Shown in pieces: positions 4,115 to 42,882 of a DNA stretch of 42,882 nucleotides; within the stretch, counting starts at the first letter, position 1; every line of letters begins with the position of its first letter. Location: IMG/VR virus record IMGVR_UViG_3300015050_000735, positions 1 through 42,882 of that record. The stretch is one strand, 5' to 3'. The position numbers and the translations under genes are program-made. Under the pieces are notes generated by a model. The model ran no database searches, had not been told where the DNA came from, and was given only the letters and a program-made list of their open reading frames with translations. Source of the stretch: a virus.

Positions 4115-4124
4115 CTGCGGCTCC

Positions 4125-4661: not shown

Positions 4662-5056
4662 AAGGGAACCTCCCCTAAATCGTCGTCCAGATCGCGCCCA
4701 CCGTGCGTGCGCGGGTCGTCTCTGTCGGCCTTCTGGCGCTCCTGCTTCGGAGCCGCTTCACGCTTCTCCCCGCCCTGCATGGTGAGTTCCGAGACGCGGA
4801 CGGTGAAATACGTCTTGCCGTCATGCTCGCGCTTGCCGAGATCGCCTGACACCGAGACGGCGTTGCCTTTGGACAGGTGAGGTTCCAACGCCTCGCCCCG
4901 CTTGCCGAACAGCGAGCAATCGAACCACAGCGTGCCCTTGCGCTCGCCATAGCCATCATCGACGGCGACGGTGAAATTGAGAACGGCTGTTCCGTCCTGT
5001 GTCCTGCGGAGTTCGGCGTCCTTGCCGAGACGGCCTGCGATTACGATGGTCTTCAC
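4658..5056 (-). CDS. ssb: Single-stranded DNA-binding protein
   Basis: OB-fold start MKTIVIAGRLGKDAELRRTQDGTAVLNFTVAV...LWFDCSLFGKRGEAL and acidic C-terminal tip DDDLGEVPF. Confidence 0.9.
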   Translation of the reverse strand: MKTIVIAGRLGKDAELRRTQDGTAVLNFTVAVDDGYGERKGTLWFDCSLFGKRGEALEPHLSKGNAVSVSGDLGKREHDGKTYFTVRVSELTMQGGEKREAAPKQERQKADRDDPRTHGGRDLDDDLGEVPF

Positions 5057-5065
5057 GGTGTTCTC

Positions 5066-14629: not shown

Positions 14630-15129
14630 TCTCCCTACTCTCCCCAGGGAAAGCGCCGCTCGATCTCGCTGGCGCATCCCGTATCCATATTGTCGTTCGA
14701 AGCCCTTACAGCCGAACGACCAAGCTTACGTTTCCCTGCTCGCGCGATCAGCTTCCCGGCCATACGCGCGGCAACATTACCGAGGCTTTCGAAGCAGTCT
14801 TCCGCCTCGCCATCTTCGGTCTAGGGTGCCTTCTCGTGCTGATGATAGGCATTGCGAAGGCGCATGAGGCGCGCACGGTCGCGGGGCAACCTTTGGGGTG
14901 GACCTATGGCTACGAATGCTGCTCGGCCGTCGACTGTAGCGTCACGGGCGACAGGGACATCTCGGAGACGCCGGAAGGCTACCGCATCGAGATCACAGGC
15001 GAAATCATACCCTACGGCGACAAGCGCATCAAGCGTTCGAGAGACGAATTCTTCCACCGCTGCACGCCGGGCGGGGTAGCCACCGCGCCGCGCAGCATAT
15101 GCCTCTATGTTCCCAATCGGGGGTTTTGA
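14626..15129 (+). CDS. Cys-rich membrane-anchored/exported protein (start uncertain)
   Basis: Hydrophobic segment VFRLAIFGLGCLLVLMIGIAKA-HEA, then WTYGYECCSAVDCS...GYRIEITGEIIPYGDKRIKRSRDEFFHRC...ICLYVPNRGF, a pattern recalled from Rhizobiales chromosomal and phage proteins. The only in-frame start I can find upstream is the TTG at 14626. An 8-bp hairpin at 14692..14720 lies in the putative N-terminal region. Confidence 0.55.
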   Translation: MISLLSPGKAPLDLAGASRIHIVVRSPYSRTTKLTFPCSRDQLPGHTRGNITEAFEAVFRLAIFGLGCLLVLMIGIAKAHEARTVAGQPLGWTYGYECCSAVDCSVTGDRDISETPEGYRIEITGEIIPYGDKRIKRSRDEFFHRCTPGGVATAPRSICLYVPNRGF

Positions 15130-16865: not shown

Positions 16866-17086
16866 ACATCGCCTTCGTTCCCCGTTCCTCTCTCCCCACC
16901 CGTCTGGCTCTAGGCTGGACGATCATTCCCGGCGCGCCCCACCCGGCCTCGTGGGCGGTGTTGATGCAGATCCCTGAGATTGCGGTGGATACGCCGGTCC
17001 CATGCTTTCCAGAGCCTATCCGTGGCAGCACCAAGAGCCAGAGCGCACGGTCGCGAAACAAGGTTCGCTACGCGGGGGCTGAGTGA
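16862..17086 (+). CDS. Possible small protein (74 aa, MNIAFVPRSSLPTRLALGW...)
   Basis: ATGA overlap with the methyltransferase stop and TGATG overlap with the rusA start. Confidence 0.45.
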   Translation: MNIAFVPRSSLPTRLALGWTIIPGAPHPASWAVLMQIPEIAVDTPVPCFPEPIRGSTKSQSARSRNKVRYAGAE

Positions 17087-17454
17087 TGGAATTCGACCTT
17101 CCAATGCCGCCGTCCGTCAACAGTCTCTACACGAACGTGTCAGGTATCGGGCGCGTCAAGACGAAGCTCTATCGGAAGTGGATCACCGAAGCCAGCTGGA
17201 TGCTGGTCACTCAACGGAATCAGCGCGGTAGACACAAGCGAGTTGAAGGTCGCGTGTCAGTTACTGTGAAGGCGATGCGCCCGCAAAGGGTCCGCGATCT
17301 GGACAACATACTGAAGGCCATCATGGACCTTCTGAAATCAACGCAAACCATACGAGACGACAGCCAGGTAGTCGAGATCAAGGCGCGGTGGGTTGATGAA
17401 GGCGTTCCTTGCTCGGTGCTGATCTGTGCGGCTGAAGAGGAAACGGCTGCATGA
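17086..17454 (+). CDS. rusA: RusA Holliday-junction resolvase
   Basis: LPMPPSVNSLY...RVRDLDNILKAIMDLLKSTQTIRDDSQVVEIKARW aligns by eye with E. coli RusA (LPWPPSNNRYY...RRRDLDNLQKAAFDAL...DDAQVV). Confidence 0.88.
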   Translation: MEFDLPMPPSVNSLYTNVSGIGRVKTKLYRKWITEASWMLVTQRNQRGRHKRVEGRVSVTVKAMRPQRVRDLDNILKAIMDLLKSTQTIRDDSQVVEIKARWVDEGVPCSVLICAAEEETAA

Positions 17455-17831
17455 AGCTTCGTGAGCAAGAGCCGGAAGGGTTCGCCGACTTCTGGACTGC
17501 ATGGATGCCCTATCGCCGCAAGAATGATGGCAGGGGAGAAGCCCGCACAGCCTATCGCAAGCACGTCCTGTCCGGTGCAGAGCCGCAGGACATCATCGAC
17601 GGCGCCCGCGCCTACCTCAGAAGCCTGACAGACCGCGACAAGCCATACATCCCGCTCGCCGCAACCTGGCTCAATCGCGAAGCCTACGAGGATTGGGCAC
17701 AGGAGGAACGCGATTATCAGAAGCGCCTCGCAGAACGATCAACCAACGTCGTCAACATCAACCGTCCTCTGCCTCGCTCCAAATGGGCGATGGAATACGA
17801 CCGGACCAAGAGCAAGCAAGCAGCGGAGTAA
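17451..17831 (+). CDS. Hypothetical protein (126 aa), replication-module associated
   Basis: EGFADFWTAWMPYRRKNDGRGEARTAYRK pattern, seen from memory in phage replication regions. ATGA overlap with rusA. Confidence 0.62.
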   Translation: MKLREQEPEGFADFWTAWMPYRRKNDGRGEARTAYRKHVLSGAEPQDIIDGARAYLRSLTDRDKPYIPLAATWLNREAYEDWAQEERDYQKRLAERSTNVVNINRPLPRSKWAMEYDRTKSKQAAE

Positions 17832-17836
17832 GCGTC

Positions 17837-18292
17837 ATGTTGGAAGAGTCACCGATTGGATACAATCCGGAGTTCGCAAAGGCTGTCCTCGCCAAGCGGG
17901 AACACGCCGAACGCCTGAAGCATACCAACATGCTGTTGCGCGAGGCGGCTCAGGCAAAGGTAGAGATCGAAGCGAAGAAGGCCAAGCGCATCGATATCCC
18001 GTTCCGCGAACTCATGGCGATGATCCCGCGCACGACATTCCAGAAAATCGAGCGGCGGGCCATCCTCGTGTTCGGCATACGGTCCATCCATATCAAGGGC
18101 CAGTCCCGCAAGCGCGATGTTGTTCTGGCGCGGCAGTTCATCTGCTATTGGGCGTGCCGGCGCACGGCATTCTCCCTGCCTCAGATCGGGCGTTTGCTGG
18201 GTGGTCGCGATCATACGACAGTCCTGCATTCCGTAAGCGCCTACAGGGCCAAGCGGAAGCGCATGGGCCGCAATCTTCCCCCGGCGAGGTGA
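17837..18292 (+). CDS. DnaA domain IV-like HTH DNA-binding protein (151 aa)
   Basis: SRKRDVVLARQFICYWACRRTAFSLPQIGRLLGGRDHTTVLHSVSAY matches the DnaA C-terminal DNA-binding domain signature. Confidence 0.72.
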   Translation: MLEESPIGYNPEFAKAVLAKREHAERLKHTNMLLREAAQAKVEIEAKKAKRIDIPFRELMAMIPRTTFQKIERRAILVFGIRSIHIKGQSRKRDVVLARQFICYWACRRTAFSLPQIGRLLGGRDHTTVLHSVSAYRAKRKRMGRNLPPAR

Positions 18293-18296
18293 AGAC

Positions 18297-18383
18297 ATGA
18301 CCAAAACGCGCAAGTTTGAATGGGTTCTCGTGGCGGCAAGCGTTGCCGTTCTCGCGATGGTTTGGTGGAACATATTGGCATGA
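18297..18383 (+). CDS. Possible 28-aa membrane micro-protein
   Basis: Hand translation gives MTKTRKFEWVLVAASVAVLAMVWWNILA. GAGGTGA Shine-Dalgarno. ATGA overlap with the next start. Confidence 0.35.
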   Translation: MTKTRKFEWVLVAASVAVLAMVWWNILA

Positions 18384-18619
18384 CCATGATCGAACGTGTA
18401 GCCGCATCCATCGTCATCGCCCAGAAGCGCGGTCTGGACCGTAACGGGGTGGCGAGAGCTGCGATTGAGGCAATGCGCGAACCGGAAGTCGAGATGATCG
18501 CTGCATTCTGGAGACAGAAGAACCGGGGCGCGCAAGATCCGGGAGAATGGAGCGAATTTAGGAGCGATTATGACGCCTACCGCGCCATGATCGACCAAGC
18601 CCTGAAGGACGAAGCATGA
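18380..18619 (+). CDS. Hypothetical protein (79 aa, start at MTMIERVAAS)
   Basis: Shares the AAIEAMREPEVEM motif with the product of 941..1174. Confidence 0.58.
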   Translation: MTMIERVAASIVIAQKRGLDRNGVARAAIEAMREPEVEMIAAFWRQKNRGAQDPGEWSEFRSDYDAYRAMIDQALKDEA

Positions 18620-18921
18620 CCATGCTCACCGGTCTGGCCGCGCTTTCGGACGCCGTTTACATGATGAGGCAAATCGATCGCCCCAAGAATGTTGAGATCC
18701 GAGTCGATCGGTTCGCGACCTTGCTCGAAGCAATTGAACGGTATGGAACTACGATAGTTCGAGGTGAACCATCGGCCGATGTCAAGTTTGCGGAGTTCAT
18801 GGGCGTGAAAGTACTTGAAGATTTCAAGATGCCGCCCGGTTTTGCCTGCATAATCGCAGATGGCGAGGTTGTCGATATTCTGGATCTTCGCGACTGCCTG
18901 GAACGGGAGCCTAGCGCATGA
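18616..18921 (+). CDS. Hypothetical protein (101 aa)
   Basis: Intact ORF with 4-nt overlaps at both ends. Confidence 0.6.
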   Translation: MTMLTGLAALSDAVYMMRQIDRPKNVEIRVDRFATLLEAIERYGTTIVRGEPSADVKFAEFMGVKVLEDFKMPPGFACIIADGEVVDILDLRDCLEREPSA

Positions 18922-19457
18922 AGCCACCTAGCGCAGATCGCCATTGGTTCGTTTTGAGAACCAACCCTAAATGCGAGGAGAAGGCCGCGTCCAATCTGCG
19001 CAAGGCTTCGTTCGAGGTCTATTTCCCCCGCCAGCGTATCGAGCGCAAGAACAAGCGCACCCACGTCAAGCACGTCATCGAACGGCCTCTGATGCTCCGC
19101 TATATCTTCATCGGCATGCCGGCCAACGTGAAGCACTTCGGCTTCGCCCGCGCCTGTGAGGGTGTGGAGGACTTCCTGCGCAATAACCAGGTGCCTCTGC
19201 GCATTCCGTTCCGAGCCGTGGAAGAGTTCTATCTCGCAGAGGTGGACATGCGCTTTGACGAGACGGAACAGGCCCGCAAATATATGGCTGAGAAGTTTGC
19301 CGAGGGCACGAACCACGTTCTCACGGAAGGCCCATTCGAGGGCCAGACCATGCGCATCAAGAAGCTTCTCGACACGGGCGACGTGGACGGTATCGTGCGC
19401 CTGTTCGGTGGCGAAGTGAAGATCCGGGTCAAGACGGACAAACTGGCAGCGGCGTAG
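18918..19457 (+). CDS. NusG/RfaH-like transcription antitermination factor (179 aa)
   Basis: NGN-type start HWFVLRTNPKCEEKAASNLRKASFEVYFP and a KOW-like C-terminal part (LTEGPFEGQTMRIKKL...VRLFGGEVKIRV). It sits at the early/late boundary. Confidence 0.72.
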   Translation: MKPPSADRHWFVLRTNPKCEEKAASNLRKASFEVYFPRQRIERKNKRTHVKHVIERPLMLRYIFIGMPANVKHFGFARACEGVEDFLRNNQVPLRIPFRAVEEFYLAEVDMRFDETEQARKYMAEKFAEGTNHVLTEGPFEGQTMRIKKLLDTGDVDGIVRLFGGEVKIRVKTDKLAAA

Positions 19458-20851: not shown

Positions 20852-22261
20852 TTGAAATTGGCTGATTTCAGCCTCACTGCCAAGCAGTCGGAACTCAAAC
20901 CGCTGCTCAGTTCCACAGCCCGTCATGTGCTTCTGTTCGGTGGGTCCAGGTCGGGAAAGACGTTCCTGTTCTGCTACGGGATAGCCACAAGGGCATTGAG
21001 GGCTGCTGGTTCCCGGCATGGCATCTTCCGCAAGCACGGTGTTGCGGTAAAGCAATCGGTGGGCAAGGACACCTTTCCGAAGGTGATGCAGTTTGCTTAT
21101 CCCGATGCTCCCTACAAATGGTATGAGCAGGATGGGCTGTTTGCATTCCCGAATGGGTCTGAGGTCTGGCTTGCCGGGCTGGATGACAAGGAACGCATCG
21201 ACAAGGTTCTCGGCAAGGAATACGCCACCACCTACGAGAACGAAGCGTCCGAGATCAGCTATGATGCTCACACGACGCTGGAATCGAGACTGGCGCAGAA
21301 GGTTGCGGTCACTGTCGGGGATGGGGAATATCTCAGGCAGAAGAACTACGTCGACCTGAACCCGACAACGCAGTCGCACTGGACCTACAAGATGTTCGTC
21401 CAGGGCATCGAGCCTCTGGAGAAAAAGCCGCTTCCCCGCGATGACTATGTGTGGGGAATTGCCAATCCCTCGGACAACAGGGAAAACCTTGATCCTGCCT
21501 ATATCGCTGGGCTGGAGCTTATGCCGAGAGCGAAGCGTGCACGCTTCTTCGAAGGCAAGTTCTCAGGCGATTCCTCCGATGCGTTGTGGACCAGGTCGGT
21601 TATCGACAACAGCCGCCTCTACATCAGGACCGAGACTGAGCTTCCTCATTTCAAGCGCGTGGTGATTGCGCTCGATCCGGCCATATCCAGCGAGACGGGA
21701 TCGAACGAGACGGGCATCATTGCCGCTGCTACGGATGGGCCAGGTCAGGGATATGTGCTTGCCGATGGGTCTGGCGTGTTCAAGCCGGAGGAATGGGCAC
21801 GATCTGCCATCCATCTCTATCACTACTACAAGGCGGACAGAATCGTCGCCGAGGCCAATCAGGGCGGCGAGATGGTGACTGCGGTCATCCATGCCCAAAA
21901 CCCTGACATTCCGGTGACGTTGGTCAAGGCAAGCCGAGGCAAATACATCCGGGCCGAACCTGTTGCAGCTCTCTATGCGAGAGGTCGCATTCGCCATGTT
22001 GGCGAGTTTCAAGAACTGGAAGATCAGATGTGCGTGTTCACGTCTGACTTCGACCGCAAGCAGGAAGGCTATTCGCCGGACAGGCTCGATGCGCTGGTGT
22101 GGGCCTTCACTGAACTGTTCCCCGGCCTGATCTCGGACAGGGGCAGGCAGATGGCGCCTCAGTCCGTCGCTCATGGCGAGTATGACATCTTCGCAGCCGA
22201 AGAGACGGCAAGACGGCTGAACCGGCAGGCGATTGCCGGCATGGAATACGATCCCCTCTAG
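20852..22261 (+). CDS. terL: Terminase large subunit (469 aa; TTG start as given, exact start uncertain)
   Basis: Walker A motif LLFGGSRSGKTF, an ATPase N-terminal half and a nuclease-like C-terminal half (ALDPAISSETGSNETGI...DRIVAEANQGGEM). Its position is before the portal gene. Confidence 0.88.
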   Translation: MKLADFSLTAKQSELKPLLSSTARHVLLFGGSRSGKTFLFCYGIATRALRAAGSRHGIFRKHGVAVKQSVGKDTFPKVMQFAYPDAPYKWYEQDGLFAFPNGSEVWLAGLDDKERIDKVLGKEYATTYENEASEISYDAHTTLESRLAQKVAVTVGDGEYLRQKNYVDLNPTTQSHWTYKMFVQGIEPLEKKPLPRDDYVWGIANPSDNRENLDPAYIAGLELMPRAKRARFFEGKFSGDSSDALWTRSVIDNSRLYIRTETELPHFKRVVIALDPAISSETGSNETGIIAAATDGPGQGYVLADGSGVFKPEEWARSAIHLYHYYKADRIVAEANQGGEMVTAVIHAQNPDIPVTLVKASRGKYIRAEPVAALYARGRIRHVGEFQELEDQMCVFTSDFDRKQEGYSPDRLDALVWAFTELFPGLISDRGRQMAPQSVAHGEYDIFAAEETARRLNRQAIAGMEYDPL

Positions 22262-23477: not shown

Positions 23478-23669
23478 ATGTGCATTGTTAAGCCTCCCAA
23501 ACCGCAGGCTGCACCGCCGCCGCCCAATCCCAACATGGCGAATATCGCGGCTGCGAACGAAATGCGCCGTGCTGCCTCTGAGGGAACGGGTGCGCGAGAC
23601 AACATGCTGACGCGCCTGTCGGATGAGGATGTCCGCAACTCGGCCACCAAGAAGAGGCTCGGCCAGTGA
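23478..23669 (+). CDS. Small virion protein, T7 gp6.7-like (63 aa, start at MCIVKPPKPQ)
   Basis: The N-terminus MCIVKPPKP resembles T7 gp6.7 (MCFSPKIKTPK). Located directly upstream of the portal gene. Confidence 0.5.
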   Translation: MCIVKPPKPQAAPPPPNPNMANIAAANEMRRAASEGTGARDNMLTRLSDEDVRNSATKKRLGQ

Positions 23670-25258
23670 ACGCGGAAGAAATCTGCAAGCGCTTCGACAA
23701 GCTGCATGCGGATCGCGGGGCAGTCATGTCCCACTGCCAGGAAATTGCCGAGTTCATCTATACACGTCGCGCCTCGTTCAACACGGAGCGGACAGAGGGC
23801 GACAAGAGGCAGCAGCGCATCTACGATTCCACCGGCACGCATGCGCATGAGCTTCTAGGCGCTGGCCTGCATGGCATGGCCTCCAATCCGGCAAGCCGCT
23901 GGTTTTCGATGAAGACCGACGACGAGGGCCTGAACGGCCTCGATACGGTCAGGACATGGCTCGATGACGTAGCCGACCGGATGTATTCGCGGATGCATTC
24001 GCCTCGGTCTAGCATCACGACGCACCTGCATGAACTTTATCTGGACCTTGCCGCGTTCGGCACGGCTGTCATGTTCATCGGCACGACCAAGGACGAGACG
24101 CTTTTGTTCCAGACGCGGTTTCTCGGCGAGTGCGTGATTGACGAGAACGCGGAAGGTTCGGTCGATACGGTCATCCGTGAGTTTACGCTCACCGTACGCC
24201 AGATGGTGCAGAAGTGGGGCGATCAGGTTTCCGAGGATGTGCGCAAGAAGCACGCCGATGGGAAGCTTGATGACAAGATCACGGTCCTGCATGCGGTGTT
24301 TCCAAGAGAGGATCGCGACGACCAGAAAGAGACGCCGGACAACATGCCGTATGCGTCGATCTATGTGGAGAAGAAGGCCAAGAACGAGCTTCAGAACGGC
24401 GGGTTCGAGGAATTCCCCTACGCTGTGCCGCGTTGGTATAAGGCCAGTGGCGAACGCTATGGCCGCTCTCCCGCGATGTCTGCCCTCCCTGATGTGAAGA
24501 TGCTTCAGGAGATGATGAAGACGACCATCAAGGCGGCACAGAAGATTGTCGATCCTCCCTTGCTGGTGCCTGATGATGGCATGATCGGCCCGGTTAGGAC
24601 CGTGCCTGGTGGGCTGAACTTCTACCGCGGCGAGCGTGAGATCGTCCCGTTGATGACGGGTGGCAACATCCCGATCTCGCTGGAGATGATGCAGGATCTG
24701 CGCACGCGCATCATGAACACGTTCTTCGTGGACCAGTTGCAGTTCTCCGGTGACGCCAAGATGACGGCGACCGAGACGATGCAGCGCACTGAGGAACGCA
24801 TGCGCCTGCTTGGTCCTATCCTCGGCCGCATGGAAACTGAACTGCTTGGACCGATCGTGACGCGGGTCTTCGGCATCATGATCAGGGCTGGCGAATTCCC
24901 GCCCCAGCCGCAAGAGCTGGATGGCGTTGAATGGCGTGTCGAGTATTCCAGCCCGATTGCCTTGGCCCAGCGTGGGCAGAAGGTGGATCGCGCGGTGATG
25001 ATGCTGACGATTGCAGGTCAGATGGCGGCGTTCGATCCGAACATCATGGCCCGCTTCGACAGCGAGAACTTCCTGCCCTGGATTGCGGGTGAGCTTGGCG
25101 TCGATCCCGATCTTGTCCTGGACGATAGCGAGTTCGAGCAGAAGCAGCAGGCGCAGCAGATGGCTAACATGGCAGGCCCGGCACAGGTGGCGGCGGATGC
25201 CTTCGCCAAGGCAGGGCAGGGCGCCAAGGCGTTCGCAGAAGCAGGAGCGATGCAATGA
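23666..25258 (+). CDS. Portal (head-to-tail connector) protein, podovirus/T7 gp8-like (530 aa)
   Basis: The size and the position between terL and the scaffold/capsid genes fit a portal. GTG start overlapping the upstream stop. Confidence 0.85.
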   Translation: MNAEEICKRFDKLHADRGAVMSHCQEIAEFIYTRRASFNTERTEGDKRQQRIYDSTGTHAHELLGAGLHGMASNPASRWFSMKTDDEGLNGLDTVRTWLDDVADRMYSRMHSPRSSITTHLHELYLDLAAFGTAVMFIGTTKDETLLFQTRFLGECVIDENAEGSVDTVIREFTLTVRQMVQKWGDQVSEDVRKKHADGKLDDKITVLHAVFPREDRDDQKETPDNMPYASIYVEKKAKNELQNGGFEEFPYAVPRWYKASGERYGRSPAMSALPDVKMLQEMMKTTIKAAQKIVDPPLLVPDDGMIGPVRTVPGGLNFYRGEREIVPLMTGGNIPISLEMMQDLRTRIMNTFFVDQLQFSGDAKMTATETMQRTEERMRLLGPILGRMETELLGPIVTRVFGIMIRAGEFPPQPQELDGVEWRVEYSSPIALAQRGQKVDRAVMMLTIAGQMAAFDPNIMARFDSENFLPWIAGELGVDPDLVLDDSEFEQKQQAQQMANMAGPAQVAADAFAKAGQGAKAFAEAGAMQ

Positions 25259-25401: not shown

Positions 25402-25660
25402 CCGCGAACAGATCGCCCGCGACATCCGCATCGTCAACGGCACGGAAGAGGGCGAACGGCTGATCGGGTATCTGCTCGATTTCTGCCATGTGCTCCGCGA
25501 CTCCATGCCGAAGAGCGGCAACGACAACATCTGGAAGATCAACGAGGGGCAGCGCACGGTCGGCAATGAGATCGTGGCTCTCCTCGTCAACGGCCCTGAG
25601 CGGTTCAAGGCGGAAACCCTTCGCTCACTCGCCAGGCAAGCAGAAGGAACTGACATTTGA
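25394..25660 (+). CDS. Hypothetical protein (88 aa from the TTG at 25394)
   Basis: REQIARDIRIVNGTEEGERLIGYLLDFCHV...NEGQRTVGNEIVALL. The upstream part of the track ORF overlaps the previous micro-ORF and looks non-coding. Confidence 0.5.
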   Translation: MHSREQIARDIRIVNGTEEGERLIGYLLDFCHVLRDSMPKSGNDNIWKINEGQRTVGNEIVALLVNGPERFKAETLRSLARQAEGTDI

Positions 25661-26520
25661 CCGACGCACCCGCGCCCGCTCCGGCGGATAACGCGGCGCC
25701 TGCACCGATTGCAGAGGCCGCACCAGCGACAACCTCATCCCCGAGCTGGCTTGACGATCTTCCCGACGATCTCAAGACCAGCCCGTCCCTGTCCAAGTTC
25801 GAAACCAAGGAAGGGTTTGCGAAGTCCTACATCAACCTCGAAAAGATGCTCGGCTCTGAAAAGGTGCCAGTGCCGAAAGAGGGAGATGCCGAGGGCTGGA
25901 CCCGATACCTGAAGGCTGGCGGTCTGCCCGATACGCCTGACGCCTATGGCTTCACCAAGCCCGAGACGGTGCCAGAGGGCTTCAACTACGACGAAGGTCT
26001 CGACAAGCGCATCGCTGGCATGATGCACAAGGCCAATCTGCTTCCATCACAGGCGAAGGCCATGCGTGAGGAACTGATGGGACTGGTCGCCGAGGGCGCG
26101 CAAGAGAACCTGAATGCCTCGAAAGCGCAGGAAGCAGCGAAGGCCCTCGATGTCCAGCGCGGCACGGATGCTCTGAAACAGGAATGGGGACCGGCATTCG
26201 AACAGCGCGGCAAGGTAGCCGGGGCTGCAATCAACAAGTTCCTCTCGCCCGAGACAATCGCGGCGATGGATGCGGCGGGGCTGGCGAACAATCCGGCCAT
26301 CATCAAGGACATGTATAACCTCGGCGTGAAGCTTGCCGGCGAAAAGGAATTGATCGGCGTTGCCGAACAGAGCCAAGCGCCTACCGATCTTGACGCAGCC
26401 ATTGCGGATCACCGTTCCAAGCATGGCGCGGCATTGCAAGACCGTTCCCACCCGGACCACAAGTTGCGGGTGGCTGAGATGACAGCACTGTTCAACAAGC
26501 GGTTCCCCGCACAGCAGTGA
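25657..26520 (+). CDS. Scaffolding protein (287 aa)
   Basis: Ala/Pro-rich N-terminus followed by a long helical, charged region. Located between the portal and major capsid genes. Confidence 0.7.
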   Translation: MTDAPAPAPADNAAPAPIAEAAPATTSSPSWLDDLPDDLKTSPSLSKFETKEGFAKSYINLEKMLGSEKVPVPKEGDAEGWTRYLKAGGLPDTPDAYGFTKPETVPEGFNYDEGLDKRIAGMMHKANLLPSQAKAMREELMGLVAEGAQENLNASKAQEAAKALDVQRGTDALKQEWGPAFEQRGKVAGAAINKFLSPETIAAMDAAGLANNPAIIKDMYNLGVKLAGEKELIGVAEQSQAPTDLDAAIADHRSKHGAALQDRSHPDHKLRVAEMTALFNKRFPAQQ

Positions 26521-26667: not shown

Positions 26668-27582
26668 ATGTCCGCTCAAATCACTACGGCGTTTGTCGAG
26701 CAGTATAAGGCAAACGTCTATCACCTGCTTCAGCAGAAGGGTTCGAAACTGCGCGGGATCGTCCGCCTCGAATCCGTCACCGGCAAGAACGCCTTCTTCG
26801 AACAGATCGGTTCGGTTGCCGCACAGGTCCGCACGACCCGCCATGCCGACACCCCCATCCAGGACGTGCCCCATGCGAGGCGTCGTGTTTCGCTCGCCGA
26901 TTACGAACATGGTGCGATGATTGACGACCAGGACAAGATCCGCATGCTCATCGATCCGACCTCGGACTATGCGCAGGCTGCGATGTGGGCGCTCGGTCGT
27001 TCGATGGACGATGTCATCATCGCCGCCATCGACGGCACGGCCTATACCGGCGTTGACGGCTCGACTTCGACCGCGTTCGATACCAGCATGATCGTGGATG
27101 TCCAGACCGTCTGGCCCGGCGTCACGGCTGCGGATACCGGCCTGAACCTCGCCAAGCTGATCGAGGCGCGCAAGCTCCTCGGCGAAAACGATGTCGATCC
27201 CGACGAGGAAGTCTACGTCATCGTCAACTCGACGCAGATTTCGTCTCTTCTCAAGGACGAGCGTGTTGCGTCGAAGGACTACAACGCGGCTCTCCCCCTG
27301 ATGGAAGGCAAGATCGGCAAGGCTGGCGGCTGCACGCTCATCCCGTGCAATCGCATCGGCACTGACGCCAACAGCGATCAGAAGGTGCCGTTCTTCACCC
27401 GGTCGGGCATGCTGCTCGCAACCGGCGAGGACATCACCACCCGCATCGCCGAACGTGCCGACAAGGGCTTCAACACGCAGGTCTATGTCCGCATGTCCAT
27501 CGGGGCAACCCGCATGGAAGAGAAGCGCGTGGGCTACATCGAATGTGATCCGGGCGCGTCCCCGATCACTGACGACGCTTGA
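26668..27582 (+). CDS. Major capsid protein (304 aa)
   Basis: Strong GAAAGGAGAGGA Shine-Dalgarno. The position after the scaffold gene fits. The pattern FVEQYKANVYHLLQQKGSKLRG...RHADTPIQDVPHARRRVSLADYE...LIDPTSDYAQAAMWALGRSMDDVIIAA is recalled from phage major capsid proteins. Confidence 0.85.
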   Translation: MSAQITTAFVEQYKANVYHLLQQKGSKLRGIVRLESVTGKNAFFEQIGSVAAQVRTTRHADTPIQDVPHARRRVSLADYEHGAMIDDQDKIRMLIDPTSDYAQAAMWALGRSMDDVIIAAIDGTAYTGVDGSTSTAFDTSMIVDVQTVWPGVTAADTGLNLAKLIEARKLLGENDVDPDEEVYVIVNSTQISSLLKDERVASKDYNAALPLMEGKIGKAGGCTLIPCNRIGTDANSDQKVPFFTRSGMLLATGEDITTRIAERADKGFNTQVYVRMSIGATRMEEKRVGYIECDPGASPITDDA

Positions 27583-27603: not shown

Positions 27604-28104
27604 ATGGCTGTCACCACTCAGAAGTCCACGGAATACACGAACGTCACCGCCGTCCCGCAGGTTAATGTCGGCACGGTGGACATGCACGGTCGTGTGCGCG
27701 TGGCCTACTTCACTCATGCACAGTCGGGGGCTGGCGATGCGACGTCCTCGGTTGCTCTGTGCAAACTGCCGGCGGGCCGTGTCCGCCTGCTGCTCGGTTC
27801 CTCGTTCATGTATGTCAACTGGACCACGGCGAGCGCTACGCTCGATCTCGGCTGGGATGCATACACGGATGTGGAAGGCGATGCTGTCGTCGCCGATCCG
27901 AATGGCCTAATCGACGGCCTCGATGTCGATGCGGTCGGCTTGCGGTCGGGCGAAGATCTCGTGACGCTTGCTGCCATCCAGGCGACGGGCGGAACGAAGC
28001 TCTTCGAAACCAATGCAGGAGTCGTGATCCGGGCAACCTCGCAGGACACCGCGATTGCCGATGGCGACGATCTGGTTGGGTATCTTCTCTACGTCCTCGA
28101 CTGA
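27604..28104 (+). CDS. Hypothetical structural protein (166 aa), possibly a capsid accessory/decoration protein
   Basis: GAAAGGAGAA Shine-Dalgarno. It follows the capsid gene and precedes a terminator. Confidence 0.62.
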   Translation: MAVTTQKSTEYTNVTAVPQVNVGTVDMHGRVRVAYFTHAQSGAGDATSSVALCKLPAGRVRLLLGSSFMYVNWTTASATLDLGWDAYTDVEGDAVVADPNGLIDGLDVDAVGLRSGEDLVTLAAIQATGGTKLFETNAGVVIRATSQDTAIADGDDLVGYLLYVLD

Positions 28105-28124: not shown

Positions 28125-28156
28125 AAAGGGGCGGGCTTCGGTTCGCCCCTTTTTTC
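28125..28156 (+). terminator. Rho-independent terminator after the capsid genes
   Basis: AAAGGGGCG-N10-CGCCCCTTTTTT. The stem is 28128-28133/28144-28149, followed by a T-run at 28150-28155. Confidence 0.75.
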
Positions 28157-28173
28157 ATGCGCGAGGATAACCA

Positions 28174-30990
28174 ATGGCGACAGACGTAGAGATTGCCTCG
28201 CTCGCGCTGACCCGCATCGGGCATTCGAATATCTCCTCGTTCTCCTCGACGGGGGACAAGGCGCAGCGTTGGTTCAATTCCAACTATGAGACGATCAAGA
28301 AGGCGCTGCTCGCAGAGCATGCGTGGAACTTCGCGATCAAACGCGCCACGCTGTCATCCACGACGGCACCGACGAACGAATATACCAACGCCTACACCCT
28401 CCCCACCGACTTCATCCGCCTCGTGCGCCTCAATGGCGACAGCAAGGCTGGATACCGCGTAGAGCGCGGCACGCTGGCAACCTACGAGGCGACCGCCGTC
28501 ATCGAATACGTCTATGACGTGACCGATGAGGCGACGTTCACAGCCAGCTTCACGGACCTCCTAGCCCAGCGTCTCGCGGCGGAGTCCTGCTTCTACTTCA
28601 CCGACAATACCAGCCTCACCGAAATGTCCTGGAAGGTGTTTCAGGACAAGTTCGCCAAGGCCAAATCGATCGACAGTCGCGAGTCGGCACCCCGCTACAG
28701 GTCCGCCAACATGGCGCTTGCGCGCCTTGGTGAGACGACGCGGCAGGGTGAGGATGGGGCGAACATTCTTGAGAATGCGTCTCGCATCATCGAGGCGAAC
28801 TACGGCACGGTTCGCAAGGCTCTGTTGCGGGAACATCCGTGGAATTTCGCGGTCAAGCGTGTCGCGCTCGTGGCTGCGACGGCGCCCGTCAATGACTACA
28901 CCTATCGCTATACGCTGCCGGCGGATTTCCTCCGCATGGTCAAGCTCAATGCGAGCAACGAGGTCACGCATCGGATCGAAGCGGGCTATCTCGTTTCGGA
29001 CTCTGCCACGGCCACCATCGAATATATCTACGATGTCACGGACGAGGATCTCTATTCGTCCGACTTCCTCGACGTGCTGGCACAGAGGCTTGCGGCTGAG
29101 GCTGCTGCGGCGATCAATCCCCAATCCGCACAGAGCATGTGGAGCCTATATCAGGCCAAGCTTGCCCAGGCCAAGGCGACGGATAGCCGTGAGGCCACAC
29201 CGCGCAAGAAGGCGGCAAACCTTGCGCTGCTGAAGCTTGGTGAGGTCGCCGGAAGGCAGGGCGATGATGCTGCTATCTCGCGTGAGAACGCGGCGCGGGT
29301 GGTTGAAGGGCTTTGGGATAGTTGCCGAGCCGCACTGCTTCGTGAGCATCCCTGGAACTTTGCCATCAAGCGGGTATCGCTGTCCGCCACGACAACGCCC
29401 GTCAATGATTTCGCCTATGCCTATACGCTGCCTGCTGACTTCTCCCGCATGGTCAGGCTCAACGCAAGCAACGAGGTGACGTGGAGGATTGAAGGCGCTC
29501 GGCTTCTGACGGATTCCGCCACGGCGGTCATCGAATACGTCTACAGCGTCACGGACGAAACACTGTTCGATGTCCAATTCTCGGAACTTCTTGCCCAGCG
29601 CATTGCGGCCGAAGCTGCCGCTGCCCTGAACCCAGGTGCTGCCTCGGCGCTCTGGACTGTTTACCAGCAAAAACTCCTGGTGGCCCGAGAGGTGGATAGC
29701 CGCGAGTCGGCGCCCCGCAAGAAGGCCGCGAATATCGCCTTGCTCAAGCTTGGAGATATTGCCGGGAAATCCGGGAACGACGCTCTTGCCGCTCGGGAAT
29801 CGGCTGCGCGCACTGTCGAGGGGCTATGGGACAGTTGCCGCAAGGCGCTTCTGCGGGAGCATACTTGGGGCTTCGCAACCAAGCAGGCCGCACTCGTTCT
29901 CTATGGGGGTAACGCCTACACCCTCCCTGCCGACTTCATCCGTGCGATCCGAGTTAATTCGAGTGAGTCCGAATCAATCCAGATCATCAATGGGCGGCTC
30001 TACACTCTCGCGACAACGCCGACCCTCGATTACATCTATGACATTACCGACGAGACGCTATTCGATGCGCAGTTTTCGGAAGTTCTGGCGCAGCGTATAG
30101 CAGCTGAGGCAGCAATCTCGGTCAACCCCGGCGCAGCGTCCGCGTTGTGGACGGTTTACCAGCAGAAGCTCCAAGCCGCCATCATCGCCGACACGACGGA
30201 GGCGAAGCCATCAGGCGTTGTCGCAAACCTTGCCATGTCGCGTCTTGGTGAGGTCGCGGGCCGCAATGGCGCCGAGCTTCTGATTGCCCGCGCCTCGATC
30301 AAGCGTCATCTCGATTTCAGTTATCCGATCGCTCGTCAGGCCCTGCTTCGCGAGCATTCGTGGAACTTCGCCGTCAAGCGGGCGATCCTGACCAAGGACA
30401 CGATCCGCACCATCACCGGGGCGACTGCGGCGAACCCTGTCGTGATCACGTCGGCGGCTCATGGCTTTGCCAACGGTGCGACGGTCTACATCGATTCCAT
30501 CCTCGGCATGACGCAATTGAACGGTCGCACCTTCACGGTGGCGAACCAGGCGACGAACACGTTCCAACTGTCGGGTGAGAACGGCCTGACCCATACCGCT
30601 TATGCGTCGGGCGGCTATGCCTATCCCTACATCGCCAAGGAATACAAATACCGGTTTGCGCTCCCGGCCGATTGCCTGAAGCTGATCAGGATCAACCGGA
30701 CCGAGGCTGACGAGTATCGGGTCGAGCAGGGCTACGTCTACACCGACGAGAGCGAGGTCGATCTCGAATACGTCATGGACGTGACGGACGAAGACGATTT
30801 TGATTCCCAGTTCACCGATGTGCTGGCCCAGCGTCTCGCGGCAGAGGCGGCAATTGCGTTGAACCCAAGCGCGTCTGGCGCGCTGTGGAACATCTATGAG
30901 CAGAAGCTTCGCATGGCCCGCACGATGAGCGCCCGTGAGGGCACGCCGCGCGGGATCGACGCCGACACATGGATCGACGCCCGTGCCTAG
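28174..30990 (+). CDS. Tail adaptor-like polyprotein: five tandem T7 gp11 (tail tubular protein A)-like modules (938 aa)
   Basis: There are five ~170-aa units, starting near nt 28174, 28699, 29209, 29719 and 30214. Each has A-L-x-R/K-L-G...ALLREH-x-WNFA-x-KR...YTLPADF...IEY-V/I-YDVTDE...LAQR-L/I-AAEAA. The N-terminal pattern matches T7 gp11 (ILASIGE...RQIQSRGWTFN). Confidence 0.82.
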   Translation: MATDVEIASLALTRIGHSNISSFSSTGDKAQRWFNSNYETIKKALLAEHAWNFAIKRATLSSTTAPTNEYTNAYTLPTDFIRLVRLNGDSKAGYRVERGTLATYEATAVIEYVYDVTDEATFTASFTDLLAQRLAAESCFYFTDNTSLTEMSWKVFQDKFAKAKSIDSRESAPRYRSANMALARLGETTRQGEDGANILENASRIIEANYGTVRKALLREHPWNFAVKRVALVAATAPVNDYTYRYTLPADFLRMVKLNASNEVTHRIEAGYLVSDSATATIEYIYDVTDEDLYSSDFLDVLAQRLAAEAAAAINPQSAQSMWSLYQAKLAQAKATDSREATPRKKAANLALLKLGEVAGRQGDDAAISRENAARVVEGLWDSCRAALLREHPWNFAIKRVSLSATTTPVNDFAYAYTLPADFSRMVRLNASNEVTWRIEGARLLTDSATAVIEYVYSVTDETLFDVQFSELLAQRIAAEAAAALNPGAASALWTVYQQKLLVAREVDSRESAPRKKAANIALLKLGDIAGKSGNDALAARESAARTVEGLWDSCRKALLREHTWGFATKQAALVLYGGNAYTLPADFIRAIRVNSSESESIQIINGRLYTLATTPTLDYIYDITDETLFDAQFSEVLAQRIAAEAAISVNPGAASALWTVYQQKLQAAIIADTTEAKPSGVVANLAMSRLGEVAGRNGAELLIARASIKRHLDFSYPIARQALLREHSWNFAVKRAILTKDTIRTITGATAANPVVITSAAHGFANGATVYIDSILGMTQLNGRTFTVANQATNTFQLSGENGLTHTAYASGGYAYPYIAKEYKYRFALPADCLKLIRINRTEADEYRVEQGYVYTDESEVDLEYVMDVTDEDDFDSQFTDVLAQRLAAEAAIALNPSASGALWNIYEQKLRMARTMSAREGTPRGIDADTWIDARA

Positions 30991-33478
30991 CGCAAACGTC
31001 ATCCAGACCAATTTCACCGCAGGCGAGATCAGCCCAAGGCTTTATGCCAGGGTGGACATCGCGAAATATCGCAATGGCTGTCAGAGGCTTGAGAACTTCA
31101 TTGTCCAGCGGTTCGGCGGGATCAGGAAGCGTGGTGGGACGGAGTATATCAACGAGATCAAGAGTTCGGCCAGCACGGTTCGCCTGGTCCCGTTCATTTA
31201 TTCGATCACACAAGCCTACATCCTGGAGTTTGGCAACACCTACATCCGCTTCTACACCAATGGCGGCGTGGTGGAGTCGGGCGGTTCCCCGGTTGAAGTG
31301 ACGACGCCGTGGGACGCGACGGAAGTATGGGATCTGCAATTCGTGCAGAGCGCGGATGTGCTTTACATCACGCATCCCGATTATGCGCCTCGCACTCTGT
31401 CCCGCACCAGTGCAACGGTCTTTGCGCTCGATGAACTGGAGTTTCTCGACGGGCCGTATCTCGAACTGAACGAGACGCCGACGACGATGACGCCGGCCGA
31501 AACCGGCCACGTCACGCCGATTATGACGACCAATACCGCACCCTCCGGGACGGCGGCGGATAGCGGCGGGGCTGCAACGGCGTGGCAGGTGTTCGATAGA
31601 AATCCCAATACCATCTTCGCCGTCGCGGCGAATACAGGCTGGGTATCCTACGACTTCGCCGGGGCTACGACGAAGGTTGCGGATGCCTACTGGCTTCAGG
31701 CGCATCCCCAAAGCAGTAGCTCGTCTTGGGCAGCTTCGGCATGGAACTTCGAAGGCTATGACGGGTCTAGCTGGATTGTTCTCGACAGCCGCAGCGATGA
31801 GCGCGGATGGGCTGCGGGCGAAAAGCGGTATTTCGAATTCAACAACGAAACCGCGTATCAGTCCTATCGGCTTACGGCGCTTGCGTCTGACAACTCCGAT
31901 GCTGCGTTCTCGTTTGCGGAACTGGCTATCCACGAACGGGCGCAGAACCAGACCGCATTCAATCTTACGGCGTCGGCGGTCACAGGTATCAACGACGACA
32001 CCGGGTTTCAGACGACCGATGTAGGGCGCCCGATCCGGTTGCTCGGCGGGGATGGTGTGTGGCGTTGGGCAAAGATCATTGCCAGGACATCCACGACTGT
32101 CGTCACGATTCAGCTTTACGGCCATGCCCTTCCCGATACGTCGCCGATCATCAACTGGCGTCTTGGCGCATGGTCGGATGAGACGGGCTGGCCCGCATGC
32201 GTCGGCTTCTACAACGGGCGCCTGTGCTTTGCCCGCACCGCAACCCAGCCGCAGACGGTGTGGATGTCGGTTGTGGACGACTTCACCAACTTCGCGGTGT
32301 CGTCTCCGCTTGAGGATGACGATGCGATCACGGCCACGATTACATCGGAGAGCCTGAACGAGATCAAGTGGCTTGCCGAATCCACAGACCTGTTTGTCGG
32401 CACGACCGCTGCAATTCGAACCATTGGCCCGACTGCCGGGTCGACGGCGTTCTCGCCGACCAATATCAAGCAGAAGCGAGAGACTAATTTCGGGGCATCC
32501 GAGATCTTCCCTGTTAGGGTTGGGACAACCGCGCTCTACTCCGGCTACTACCGCAAGGACATTCGCGAGATTTCCTATTCGTTCGAGTTGAACGGCTATG
32601 TCTCGCAGGACATGAGCATCCTTGCCGAACACGTCCTGTCCAAGGGCGTGAAGCAGATTGCCTATGCGCAGAACCCGGATTCAGTGGTGTGGATGGTGCT
32701 TGACAACGGCTCGCTTGCCGGAATGACCTATGAGCGGGATCAGGAAGTTGTCGCGTTCCATACCCATGTTCTCGGCGGAACCAGCGTCACGGTTGAAAGC
32801 GTTGCCTCTATCCCTGGAACAGGCTGGGATGAGGTATGGCTTGTCGTCAAGCGCACGATCAATAGTGGCACGGAACGCTATATTGAGCGGCTGACTGTCG
32901 GGCTGGACGATGCGGACGAACCCTATCTCGGCACGTTCCTCGATAGCCATCTGATTTACGACGGCGTCAGCACAGGAACGATTTCCGGGCTGGCTCACCT
33001 GAACGGCCAGAGCGTTTATGTGTGGGGCCTCCCGTCCACCGTTAGCCCCGGCGTCGATGCCGTGAAGCAAGGGCCGTTCACCGTGTCGGCCGGGTCGATC
33101 ACGCTGACCCAAAACATGACCTATGCCTGTGTCGGTCTGGCCTATACGTCCGACATGGAAACGCTCTCCCCGGAAGCGGCGGCTGCGGGTGGGACCGCTC
33201 AGGCGCAGTTGGGCAAGATTTCGGAAGTGTTCGTCCGCGTCAACCGCTCCTATTACGGTTCTCTCGGCCCGATGAACGGCACGCTGGAAGCGTTCGACTA
33301 TGCACAGTCCACCGATGTTGACGGCGACTATGGGTCGGCCACGGCGGCCTATACCGGAGATATTCGCGTGCAGATCGAGATGGATTGGAACCGTCAGAAG
33401 CGGCTCCTGCTGAGGCATAGCGACCCGTCGCCATTTCATTGCCTGGGCTTGATTGCTGAAACGAGAGTGAGCGGCTGA
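30983..33478 (+). CDS. Tail tubular protein B / nozzle (T7 gp12-like), 831 aa from the GTG at 30983, with an inserted discoidin-like domain
   Basis: VIQTNFTAGEISPRLYARVDIAKYRNGCQRLENFIVQRFGGIRKRGG is typical of gp12-like N-termini. It follows the adaptor gene. Confidence 0.78.
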   Translation: MPSANVIQTNFTAGEISPRLYARVDIAKYRNGCQRLENFIVQRFGGIRKRGGTEYINEIKSSASTVRLVPFIYSITQAYILEFGNTYIRFYTNGGVVESGGSPVEVTTPWDATEVWDLQFVQSADVLYITHPDYAPRTLSRTSATVFALDELEFLDGPYLELNETPTTMTPAETGHVTPIMTTNTAPSGTAADSGGAATAWQVFDRNPNTIFAVAANTGWVSYDFAGATTKVADAYWLQAHPQSSSSSWAASAWNFEGYDGSSWIVLDSRSDERGWAAGEKRYFEFNNETAYQSYRLTALASDNSDAAFSFAELAIHERAQNQTAFNLTASAVTGINDDTGFQTTDVGRPIRLLGGDGVWRWAKIIARTSTTVVTIQLYGHALPDTSPIINWRLGAWSDETGWPACVGFYNGRLCFARTATQPQTVWMSVVDDFTNFAVSSPLEDDDAITATITSESLNEIKWLAESTDLFVGTTAAIRTIGPTAGSTAFSPTNIKQKRETNFGASEIFPVRVGTTALYSGYYRKDIREISYSFELNGYVSQDMSILAEHVLSKGVKQIAYAQNPDSVVWMVLDNGSLAGMTYERDQEVVAFHTHVLGGTSVTVESVASIPGTGWDEVWLVVKRTINSGTERYIERLTVGLDDADEPYLGTFLDSHLIYDGVSTGTISGLAHLNGQSVYVWGLPSTVSPGVDAVKQGPFTVSAGSITLTQNMTYACVGLAYTSDMETLSPEAAAAGGTAQAQLGKISEVFVRVNRSYYGSLGPMNGTLEAFDYAQSTDVDGDYGSATAAYTGDIRVQIEMDWNRQKRLLLRHSDPSPFHCLGLIAETRVSG

Positions 33479-39718: not shown

Positions 39719-40879
39719 ATGGGCGACGTTAATCAATGGCAGTTCCCCCCCAACATCGCCGGCAAGGTCGTTGGCTGGTCTGACAACGGGAAAGAGTTGG
39801 TCAATCGAAGCGTCGATGACATTTCAAAAGTCCAGACGCAGTTCGACAAGCAGGGCGCACTCTATGCCGCCTCGACATATGGAACGGACGCGGCGACGAA
39901 AATATCCGGGACACTCACTGGCGAGCATACGCAGGCGAAGTCCCTGCTGCATCTCGAAATGGTCAACGAGGGGTCTGGTCTTGCTACCGGACCTTCGCGC
40001 GCTGGCTACACCTTTACCGCCGCCGCGTTCAAGGAGGGGTATCCGAACCTCACGGCTGCTGATGGTGAGATAGACACGTCACTCTTTACCTATCGACAGG
40101 TCAATGGCGATGTGTGCGCCATCCTTGGGAACGGGGTGATCATCAACGGTTTTGGCGCCTTCATGGAGGCGGCATCCCAATCCATTGATGCGGTGACGTT
40201 TGCCACGAAGCATTCCATCCAGATCCATGCCGCTGTTGTGAATGACCGGGACGGCGGGGAGTGGGGCTATGACTGCGCGAAAATGGCGGGTCAAGGCGGC
40301 ACGGCATTCTATGGCTACAGCGCTACCGACGCCGGCTGGGATTACGGGCTACAGCTCCGGCACAAGGGGAAGACGCAGCTTGAACAGATCACGGCCAACG
40401 CTTCTCTGCGCATCTATCAGTTCGACACCCCCGCGAATTATTATGACATACGGGTGATCGCGGATGTTTTCACTCTGACCAACAGCGCCGGAGACAAACT
40501 AGGAATCGCGACTCCTGTGTCTGTGGGCTACACGCCGACCGCGACAGATGCGGATGGAGCGGATGCCCCCGTAGCAGCTACGATTTCTGGAGAATGGGAG
40601 TATGCCTCCTCCAAGGTGAGGAAAGTGTCGATCCAGGCAACCATGACGGATATCGGCGCCATGACCGGGGCAATTCGCCTCACTCTTCCGGCCACTGCTG
40701 TCAACCGGGGGACGTGCATCAAGTATTGGGTCGGGGAGAATCTCAACACTGGTGCCACCCTGCGCGGTCGTGTTCTGCCGAACACCGCCTATGTCTATGT
40801 CGTAAAAGCGAACGATAACAGTTTCCCGTGTGTCAACGGTGACCTGATCTACATCGCAGGCGAATACGAGACGGCCTGA
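39719..40879 (+). CDS. Tail fibre/spike (receptor-binding) protein candidate (386 aa)
   Basis: GGAGAA Shine-Dalgarno. It is the last large structural ORF. Gly/Thr/Ala-rich and beta-like. No specific family recognised. Confidence 0.55.
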   Translation: MGDVNQWQFPPNIAGKVVGWSDNGKELVNRSVDDISKVQTQFDKQGALYAASTYGTDAATKISGTLTGEHTQAKSLLHLEMVNEGSGLATGPSRAGYTFTAAAFKEGYPNLTAADGEIDTSLFTYRQVNGDVCAILGNGVIINGFGAFMEAASQSIDAVTFATKHSIQIHAAVVNDRDGGEWGYDCAKMAGQGGTAFYGYSATDAGWDYGLQLRHKGKTQLEQITANASLRIYQFDTPANYYDIRVIADVFTLTNSAGDKLGIATPVSVGYTPTATDADGADAPVAATISGEWEYASSKVRKVSIQATMTDIGAMTGAIRLTLPATAVNRGTCIKYWVGENLNTGATLRGRVLPNTAYVYVVKANDNSFPCVNGDLIYIAGEYETA

Positions 40880-42759: not shown

Positions 42760-42882
42760 TGCACTTTGCATGCCAATGGTTCCTTATTTTCTAACACGGC
42801 TACGAAAGGAACGTAGGCATGGCGACTAGTGGCGTAGAGAGGACTTTGGGCATCCTGCTCGCGAAGGTGGAAGGCATTGAAA
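42760..42882. repeat. Terminal direct repeat, right copy (identical to 1..123)
   Basis: Exact 123-nt identity with the window start. It contains the promoter-proximal region and the first 21 codons of the gene at 60..416. Confidence 0.9.

Follow-up and report, generated by a model that had tools for sequence, protein, structure and literature searches.

The adaptor ring that joins head to tail in short-tailed phages has been treated as a fixed, minimal part of the tail, and stacking of one to three such rings has been shown only recently. What, then, would a phage do with a gene that encodes five adaptor modules in one polypeptide? The question is raised by positions 28174..30990 (plus strand) of IMG/VR virus record IMGVR_UViG_3300015050_000735, whose full 42,882 nucleotides (positions 1 to 42,882) we analyzed and call the window. 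The gene encodes a protein of 938 amino acids (aa) plus stop and occupies the same capsid-nozzle gene slot as gp11 of phage T7 (tail tubular protein A; PDB 6R21, 7EY7). T7 gp11 has one ~196-aa module per chain and forms one ring, whereas the window protein has five modules, with a counterpart of the gp11 embracing helix on the last only. The answer that we favor, at a probability of roughly 0.6, is that twelve chains form five coaxial dodecameric rings, in which unit 1 meets the nozzle and unit 5 the portal. Stacked rings of separate chains are known; new here are adaptor modules that are covalently joined and that exceed the known maximum of three rings.

That the protein contains five units, as the original prediction held, is borne out by two profiles. 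PHROG 394 ('tail protein', a 190-position profile) matches five separate stretches of it (E=6e-173), and a hidden Markov model (HMM) built from the five window units themselves, used after self-BLASTP gave only the full-length self match, places its envelopes at aa 5-175, 175-345, 345-516, 516-681, and 681-927. The predicted boundaries at nt 28699, 29209, 29719, and 30214 agree exactly with this model, which gives unit 1 (aa 1-175) at 28174..28698, unit 2 (aa 176-345) at 28699..29208, unit 3 (aa 346-515) at 29209..29718, unit 4 (aa 516-680) at 29719..30213, and unit 5 (aa 681-938) at 30214..30987, all on the plus strand. Other details needed revision: a length of ~170 aa holds for units 1-4, but unit 5 has 258 aa, including an insertion of ~83 aa that resembles the E1-FCCH domain; some of the landmark motifs said to recur in every unit are degenerate in units 1, 4, and 5; and the linker SRExxPRKKAAN is exact at junctions 2-3 and 3-4 but reads SRESAPRYRSAN at junction 1-2 and TTEAKPSGVVAN at junction 4-5, where the SRE..PR motif is missing altogether. 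The reading frame is single and uninterrupted, with no consistent internal start signals that would produce separate chains, so that five modules share 938 aa in place of one ~190-aa module per polypeptide.

The units themselves are supported as podovirus head-to-tail adaptors of the gp11 type (T7 gp11 / SU10 gp11), as originally proposed, by family models, fold, and gene position. The 938-aa protein scores 29.8 bits with Pfam SU10_adaptor (PF24175), above the gathering cut-off of 27, and multi-unit relatives have recorded matches to PF17212 ('Tube'). An AlphaFold (AF2) model of unit 5, computed from a 76-sequence alignment, has a predicted local distance difference test score (pLDDT) of 92.3 and a predicted template modeling score (pTM) of 0.83, and runs from a short alpha1 and a long alpha2 through a beta domain to alpha3, alpha4, and a short helix at the C-terminus; this is the plan of T7 gp11, which has a short alpha1, a helix bundle, a beta 'fiber dock', and a C-terminal embracing helix. 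Searched against PDB with Foldseek, in the structural comparison that had been suggested for each unit and was run on unit 5, the model finds podophage tail adaptor chains as its best full-length matches: Carin-1 8ck1_E (E=1.6e-6), LME-1 9efk, PhiM1 8vb4_M, E1004 9vvr_T, and T7 gp11 itself (6r21_M, 7ey7_M; probability 1.00, TM 0.50 on target). At the sequence level, a search of PDB with the unit profile gives a single significant match (8ck1_E, 2.6e-6), and alignment of the 76-sequence profile to T7 gp11 with hhalign is marginal (E=0.0047, probability 7%), although collinear and inclusive of the W-x-F motif. Because of this marginal alignment, the description 'T7 gp11-like' holds by fold, family models, and synteny and not by close sequence similarity. 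The closest characterized relatives are the adaptors of Carin-1 (8CK1 chain E), LME-1 (9EFK), and SU10 (gp11, PF24175), which give the best structure or sequence matches to the window units and come from phages with T7-like tails that have a dodecameric adaptor and a hexameric nozzle; all three are single-unit proteins forming a single ring. A model of the full-length monomer repeats one secondary-structure pattern five times, with junctions of ~5 residues.

The gene also stands where an adaptor gene should stand, between the capsid genes and, as predicted, directly upstream of a gp12-type nozzle gene (30983..33478, plus strand; PHROG 376, E=5e-197). The nozzle probably starts at GTG 30983, overlapping the adaptor stop codon, and the N-terminus that this start gives lines up with orthologues; GTG 30935 is an alternative. 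A six-frame HMM search of the complete genome found no second adaptor homologue.

Could the array nevertheless be an assembly duplication or a non-functional relic? We found nothing in favor of this and regard it as next to negligible. Unit pairs share 36-61% protein identity and 49-63% nucleotide identity, with synonymous sites saturated (pS, the proportion of synonymous differences, 0.58-0.82), and Tandem Repeats Finder reports nothing at the DNA level in the gene, a null result consistent with old duplications. The 2.8-kb frame is intact, has a ribosome-binding site (GAGG, 28163..28166, plus strand, 7 nt 5' of the ATG, read from the sequence), and is translationally coupled to the nozzle gene. 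Independent assemblies contain, in the same synteny, an orthologue of 936 aa (72% identity) and a three-unit orthologue of 603 aa, and the divergence of the copies together with 5-, 3-, 2-, and 1-unit orthologues in independent assemblies upholds the earlier claim that the copies are not an assembly duplication. When the window gene is compared with its 936-aa orthologue, the ratio of nonsynonymous to synonymous differences (pN/pS) is 0.19-0.37 in every unit (0.19 in unit 2, 0.37 in unit 3, 0.21 in unit 4); by this sequence measure all five units are under purifying selection, and each is maintained.

Part of the evidence for the stacked-ring reading is that the units differ by position. In T7 (PMC6702177), contact with the nozzle is made by the alpha1-alpha2 loop, and the hold on the portal by the end of alpha4 together with the C-terminal embracing helix (R196). 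In the window protein, the head, which comprises alpha1, the alpha1-alpha2 loop, and the first part of alpha2, shares 68% identity with single-unit adaptors in unit 1, compared with 36-42% in units 2-5, and unit 1 also retains the single-unit alpha3-alpha4 loop (LTDNS.LTE). All non-first units, the last included, have in common a conserved head of derived type (ANLAL.RLGE.AGRQGDD) and an alpha3-alpha4 loop (NPGAA) that is shorter. Both of the loops that distinguish the first unit from the others lie on the nozzle-proximal face of the up-down helix bundle. At the other end, the C-terminal tail REGTPRGIDADTWIDARA (30934..30987, plus strand), which corresponds to the portal-embracing helix in T7 gp11 and is itself modeled as a helix at unit 5 residues 252-257, belongs to the last unit only, and units 1-4 run straight into the alpha1 of the next unit.

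Unit 5 also carries the E1-FCCH-like beta-barrel, inserted in its beta ('fiber dock') domain (about aa 742-824; 30397..30645, plus strand). Pfam PF16190 covers aa 758-816 at 31.4 bits against a cut-off of 29.5, Foldseek matches the FCCH domains of Uba1 and Uba6, and the alignment has a gap at this place in units 1-4. Single-unit relatives of ~261 aa carry the insert too. These single-unit FCCH adaptors (P0160-P0200, from related uncultured podoviruses; P0167, from a Nitratireductor indicus genome record) are the closest sequence relatives, from genomes collinear with the window, and they have a head like that of unit 1 together with an FCCH insert, core, and tail like those of unit 5. Of the five units, only the last keeps their C-terminal tail (REGTPRGI.AD.W..ARA) and the insert, so that unit 5 combines a derived, internal-type head with an ancestral-type core, the FCCH insert, and the tail. 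Given the T7 contacts and this distribution of loops and tail, the units are specialized by position, with a nozzle-type face at the N-terminal unit only and a portal-type tail at the C-terminal unit only: unit 1 ('first' type) would form the nozzle-docking ring, units 2, 3, and 4 are of internal type, and unit 5 ('last' type) would form the portal-docking ring. A stacked assembly calls for at least two homologous modules with the portal side and the nozzle side specialized differently; here there are five.

A tree of units suggests how the array arose. First units of 2-, 3-, and 5-unit proteins group together and with single-unit adaptors, last units group together, and internal units form a clade of their own. 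This positional orthology points to stepwise growth from 1 to 2 to 3 to 5 units. Collinear genomes of close relatives have adaptors that grow from 262 aa (1 unit) through 435 aa (2 units) and 603 aa (3 units) to 936 and 938 aa (5 units); across this series, identity to the window is 73-80% for capsid proteins, 71-73% for the portal, and 62-69% for the nozzle (64-75% in its N-terminal 150 aa). The nozzle (821-831 aa) and the gp16-like protein (995-1000 aa) keep constant lengths, and the adaptor is the sole part of the tail module that scales with unit number.

The sole head-to-tail adaptor of the phage is a covalent chain of five modules, and in the arrangement that we propose, twelve such chains would assemble on the portal. 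Unit 5, at the C-terminus, would hold the portal through its embracing tail; units 4, 3, and 2 would be stacked beneath it; and unit 1, at the N-terminus, would offer its ancestral nozzle-facing loops to the hexameric nozzle, giving the order portal-u5-u4-u3-u2-u1-nozzle. The chain would leave each unit at the top of alpha4, run for ~5 residues, and enter alpha1 of the unit above; the C-terminal direction would be toward the portal because the tail of a free adaptor points upward from that same exit. At ~6 nm per ring, the adaptor tube would be roughly 30 nm long compared with ~6 nm for one ring, and the podovirus tail would be longer, its length dictated by how many modules the gene encodes. 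A possible benefit is reach through a thick capsule or surface layer, or extra tiers for docking.

Two phages, phi24B (gp64 and gp62) and Pa223 (gp63-a / gp63-b), offer precedents in which coaxial homologous dodecameric rings extend a podovirus tail and the portal-side and nozzle-side rings are specialized, as are the terminal units of the window protein. In phi24B, two coaxial dodecameric rings are made of paralogous adaptors with 18% identity, one sitting on the portal and the other making the 12-to-6 transition to the nozzle, and its authors give the number of adaptor rings as one to three (preprint 10.64898/2026.04.10.717836). In Pa223, two stacked rings of one SU10-like adaptor differ only in the last 14 residues; in the lower ring these residues lie where the two rings meet, and the pair lengthens the channel by 120 A (preprint 10.1101/2025.06.11.659172). 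GP4 is also listed among multi-ring stacked adaptor assemblies. The difference is that phi24B uses two paralogous genes and Pa223 one gene product in two conformations, whereas the window modules are covalent in one chain, and that known stacks have three rings at most, compared with five modules in the window protein and up to ~15 in relatives.

The phi24B arrangement also suggests how the 938-aa protein might be a polyprotein instead, cleaved at its junctions into five paralogous adaptors that assemble as separate rings like the two paralogues of phi24B. The motif D-S-R-E-x-x-P-R is conserved at three of the four junctions, rings of separate paralogous adaptors are known to stack, and the scaffold protein has a weak PHROG match labeled 'protease' (phrog_458, E=2e-10). 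However, D-x-R-E-G-T-P-R precedes the C-terminal tail in single-unit adaptors, which makes the motif an ancestral structural element and not a cleavage site gained later; junction 4-5 lacks it in both 5-unit orthologues; other lineages have quite different linkers; and a scan of ~40 open reading frames (ORFs) across the complete genome found no protease family. The cleavage at the conserved linker that had been suggested thus finds no support, and we hold a polyprotein to be improbable, at around one-sixth the weight that we give to uncleaved stacked rings.

A different possibility is that only the terminal unit or units form rings and that the rest project as twelve bead-like arms serving fiber docking, host binding, or decoration. 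In the models, every unit keeps the beta 'fiber dock' domain, and the full-length monomer shows no fixed packing between units (pTM 0.42). Relatives attach pectate-lyase or other domains to their chains (P0008, P0011; VP2 Q6RCF4), which indicates that the family serves as a scaffold for surface modules, and no tail fiber or spike gene is recognizable across the complete genome. Yet unit 5, which bears the portal tail, has lost the ancestral nozzle-facing loops, and unit 1, four units away, keeps them; the chain must bridge portal and nozzle because its ends appear anchored to different partners. Linkers of 5 residues allow little freedom, and the internal units keep a common derived face under purifying selection. 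Projecting arms are therefore unlikely, if somewhat less so than a cleaved polyprotein, and fiber docking could still be an added role of units within the stacked rings that we prefer.

The third rearrangement of the same five modules would be lateral. Tail-tube proteins with tandem-fused domains are found in siphoviruses, where the domains of T5 pb6 and of the P74-26 tube protein lie side by side and a trimer makes a pseudo-hexamer. As in the window gene, a ring module has been duplicated and fused in one chain there, and the adaptor units might by the same logic be neighbors within one pseudo-12-fold ring. Neighboring T7 gp11 subunits alternate between two loop conformations on the 6-fold nozzle (PMC6702177), so that a hexamer of 2-unit chains standing in for dimers is conceivable, and unit numbers of 2, 3, 4, and 6 all divide 12. 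The original prediction already observed that five copies map poorly onto a 12-fold ring, and relatives strengthen the point: unit counts in them are 2, 3, 4, 5, 6, 7, 8, and ~15, and neither 5 nor 7, 8, or ~15 divides 12. Because copy numbers vary from 2 to ~15 and do not divide the ring symmetry, stacking fits where subdivision of a single 12-mer ring does not, and an axial arrangement is indicated, unlike that of T5 pb6. In addition, one of the five units has the portal tail and one of the five has the nozzle-type loops, and the 5-residue linker looks too short, judging from helix lengths in the model, to lead from the top of alpha4 to alpha1 of a lateral neighbor. We consider lateral fusion very improbable. 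Among the three meanings first offered for the array (stacked rings, a cleaved polyprotein, or modules repurposed for fiber docking or host binding), stacked rings are thus best supported, by positional specialization, copy numbers, and precedents.

Several points weigh against stacked rings. The known examples consist of separate chains, with three rings at most. Ring formation by every unit, the stacking itself, its polarity and dimensions, and any biological benefit are all predicted from sequence, a monomer model, and analogy. In the full-length monomer model, linker pLDDT is 62-70 and the relative orientation of units is undefined, as its low pTM also indicates, and a 5-residue linker is presumed to be long enough to span stacked rings. 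The positional pattern of heads is clear in the window's own lineage only; it is mild in one other lineage and indistinct in four, for which only distant single-unit comparators are available, so that the positional test in these five other lineages is mostly uninformative for want of close comparators. Finally, units 1-4 have net charges of -1 to -2, compared with -8 and -14 for single-unit relatives; this lower acidity may or may not suit a DNA channel.

How widespread is the architecture? A profile run exhaustively against 1.84 billion representative proteins yielded 13,388 family members, and we counted units in a sample of 157 proteins (P0001-P0157) that includes the best 150 of the 13,388. 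This survey of copy number in relatives, which had been proposed from the sequence, spans 1 to ~15 units: 65 proteins have 1 unit, 28 have 2, 25 have 3, 14 have 4, 13 have 5, five have 6, three have 7, three have 8, and one (2,416 aa) has ~15. The ranking behind the sample favors multi-unit proteins, which are therefore a small minority of the whole family. Nearly all of the sampled proteins start with Met at a unit boundary, and beyond the last unit they finish in a short tail that usually has an Arg close to the C-terminus. The longest are P0016 (2,416 aa, about 15 units), P0054 (1,725 aa, 9-10 units), and P0015 (1,472 aa, 8 units). In a unit tree of ten lineages, units group by lineage with single-unit relatives interleaved, indicating from sequence at least eight to ten independent expansions. 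The genes of other multi-unit lineages likewise occupy the adaptor slot, with no second adaptor gene there.

Queried with two different 5-unit proteins, 50,697 deposited phage genomes returned only single-unit genes (spans 520-620 bp), and high 'coverage' in these matches reflects several query units collapsing onto one place. Longer spans in pelagiphage and Manatee Spring records were considered as a second unit and rejected, as they extend into the nozzle gene. Representative bacterial and archaeal genomes, scanned with two narrow peptide patterns, gave five loci, all single-unit. BFVD holds three uncharacterized multi-unit proteins (A0A516M5L4, A0A6J5LSM0, and A0A516L4P3), and searches of the open-access subset of the literature found no description of multi-unit adaptors. 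These three and the multi-unit proteins among P0002-P0157 share the architecture and adaptor slot of the window gene in separately expanded lineages, some with C-terminal pectate-lyase or other domains, and none is annotated or described. Multi-unit adaptors, with 2 to ~15 units, thus form a class that is widespread in metagenomes, recurrently evolved, and apparently undescribed.

Some relatives vary the theme. Adaptor chains of 1-4 units with large C-terminal extra domains include P0008 (L007:197-4789), in which a pectate-lyase-type spike is joined via a Gly-rich linker, and P0011, P0052, P0083, P0088, and P0103; the Vibrio phage VP2 protein Q6RCF4 is an adaptor chain with immunoglobulin (Ig)-like domains. 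Such domain-fused chains look like carriers of their own receptor-binding or depolymerase modules. In P0035 (538 aa, 3 units), unit 1 groups with one set of single-unit adaptors and units 2-3 with another, and this protein may come from fusion of two different adaptor genes, not from internal duplication.

Elsewhere in the window, an exact 123-bp terminal direct repeat (1-123 = 42760-42882) joins both ends, leaving ~42.76 kb of unique sequence; the repeat identifies the window as a complete genome of a phage, assembled as a circle or terminally redundant. By PHROG and Pfam matches, the structural genes run portal, scaffold, capsid, a 166-aa gene, the five-unit adaptor, nozzle, and internal virion proteins, a structural module of the T7/HTVC010P type. 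The large terminase is at 20852-22261, and the T7 gp8-type portal gene, the presumed partner of unit 5, is at 23666..25258 on the plus strand (Pfam PF12236, E=2e-144), followed by a Bbp19-like protein, the scaffold (25657-26520), and the major capsid protein (26668-27582). The 166-aa gene (27604-28104), conserved in position in the gap between capsid and adaptor, had no match in family searches. Its product is 81% identical to the copy in the 3-unit relative and only 17-26% identical to the others, while capsid proteins share 73-80%, and because of this disparity the gene behaves like a cassette that has been swapped. LME-1 has its head decoration protein gene in the corresponding slot, and by analogy the 166-aa product is likely to be a decoration protein as well.

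Between the capsid module and the adaptor gene lies a terminator-like hairpin (28128..28155, plus strand; GGGGCGGGC-UUCG-GUUCGCCCC, then U6), with a predicted RNA fold of -26.4 kcal/mol (z = -4.78; none of 200 shuffles was equally stable), which escaped a scan with a simple consensus terminator pattern. The T-phi terminator of T7, in the gap between genes 10 and 11, has the same position, and by analogy the hairpin would give high expression of capsid genes and lower expression of tail genes.

Downstream, the nozzle exceeds the PHROG 376 profile by ~120 aa and has an insert at about aa 170-360 that matches separate PHROGs (17517, 38477, others) and nothing in Pfam or PDB. Nozzles adjoining other multi-unit adaptors have a CBM_5_12 domain, and the insert may likewise serve the nozzle itself as a module for carbohydrate binding. 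Genes for gp14-, gp15-, and gp16-like internal virion proteins follow 3' of the nozzle. After the gp16-like gene, at the position of the T7 fiber gene, a 386-aa ORF (39719-40879) has no PHROG, Pfam, or PDB match. In close relatives, a gene in the internal-virion-protein slot (L002:13081-14898) has a weak match to ART-PolyVal (ADP-ribosyltransferase), and a gene in the fiber slot (L011:14257-15185) has a SPRY domain.

The early region is lambdoid, with HNH, NinB, SSB, an Erf-like annealing protein, RusA, a DnaA-C helix-turn-helix (HTH) domain, and a NusG-like protein, and it holds two DNA methyltransferases alongside the T7-type structural module; these genes lie at 2906-5785 (minus strand), 12248-13033, 15099-16865, and 17083-19457. 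No phage RNA polymerase was detected in the window. The phage is a mosaic podovirus and is possibly temperate. Single-unit relatives are found inside large bacterial contigs of Nitratireductor indicus and Candidatus Phyllobacterium onerii, which hints at alphaproteobacterial hosts.

If units stack as we propose, the pattern may extend well beyond one genome. Among uncultured T7/HTVC010P-like phages, a podovirus tail tube made wholly of adaptor modules, its length set by the number of tandem modules and with no tape-measure protein, may have evolved repeatedly and independently; to this broader claim we give slightly less than even odds. A tube of 1 to ~15 modules would be roughly 6 to 90 nm long. 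The length of a podovirus tail would then be modular and evolvable, determined by domain copy number instead of by a tape-measure ruler as in long-tailed phages, and the morphological border between short-tailed and long-tailed phages would be blurred. Annotation pipelines leave multi-unit adaptors unnamed or mislabeled. The collinear genomes with 1, 2, 3, and 5 units form a natural allelic series in which tail length could be related to adsorption through capsules and surface layers, and they suggest a simple design rule for the engineering of tail length.

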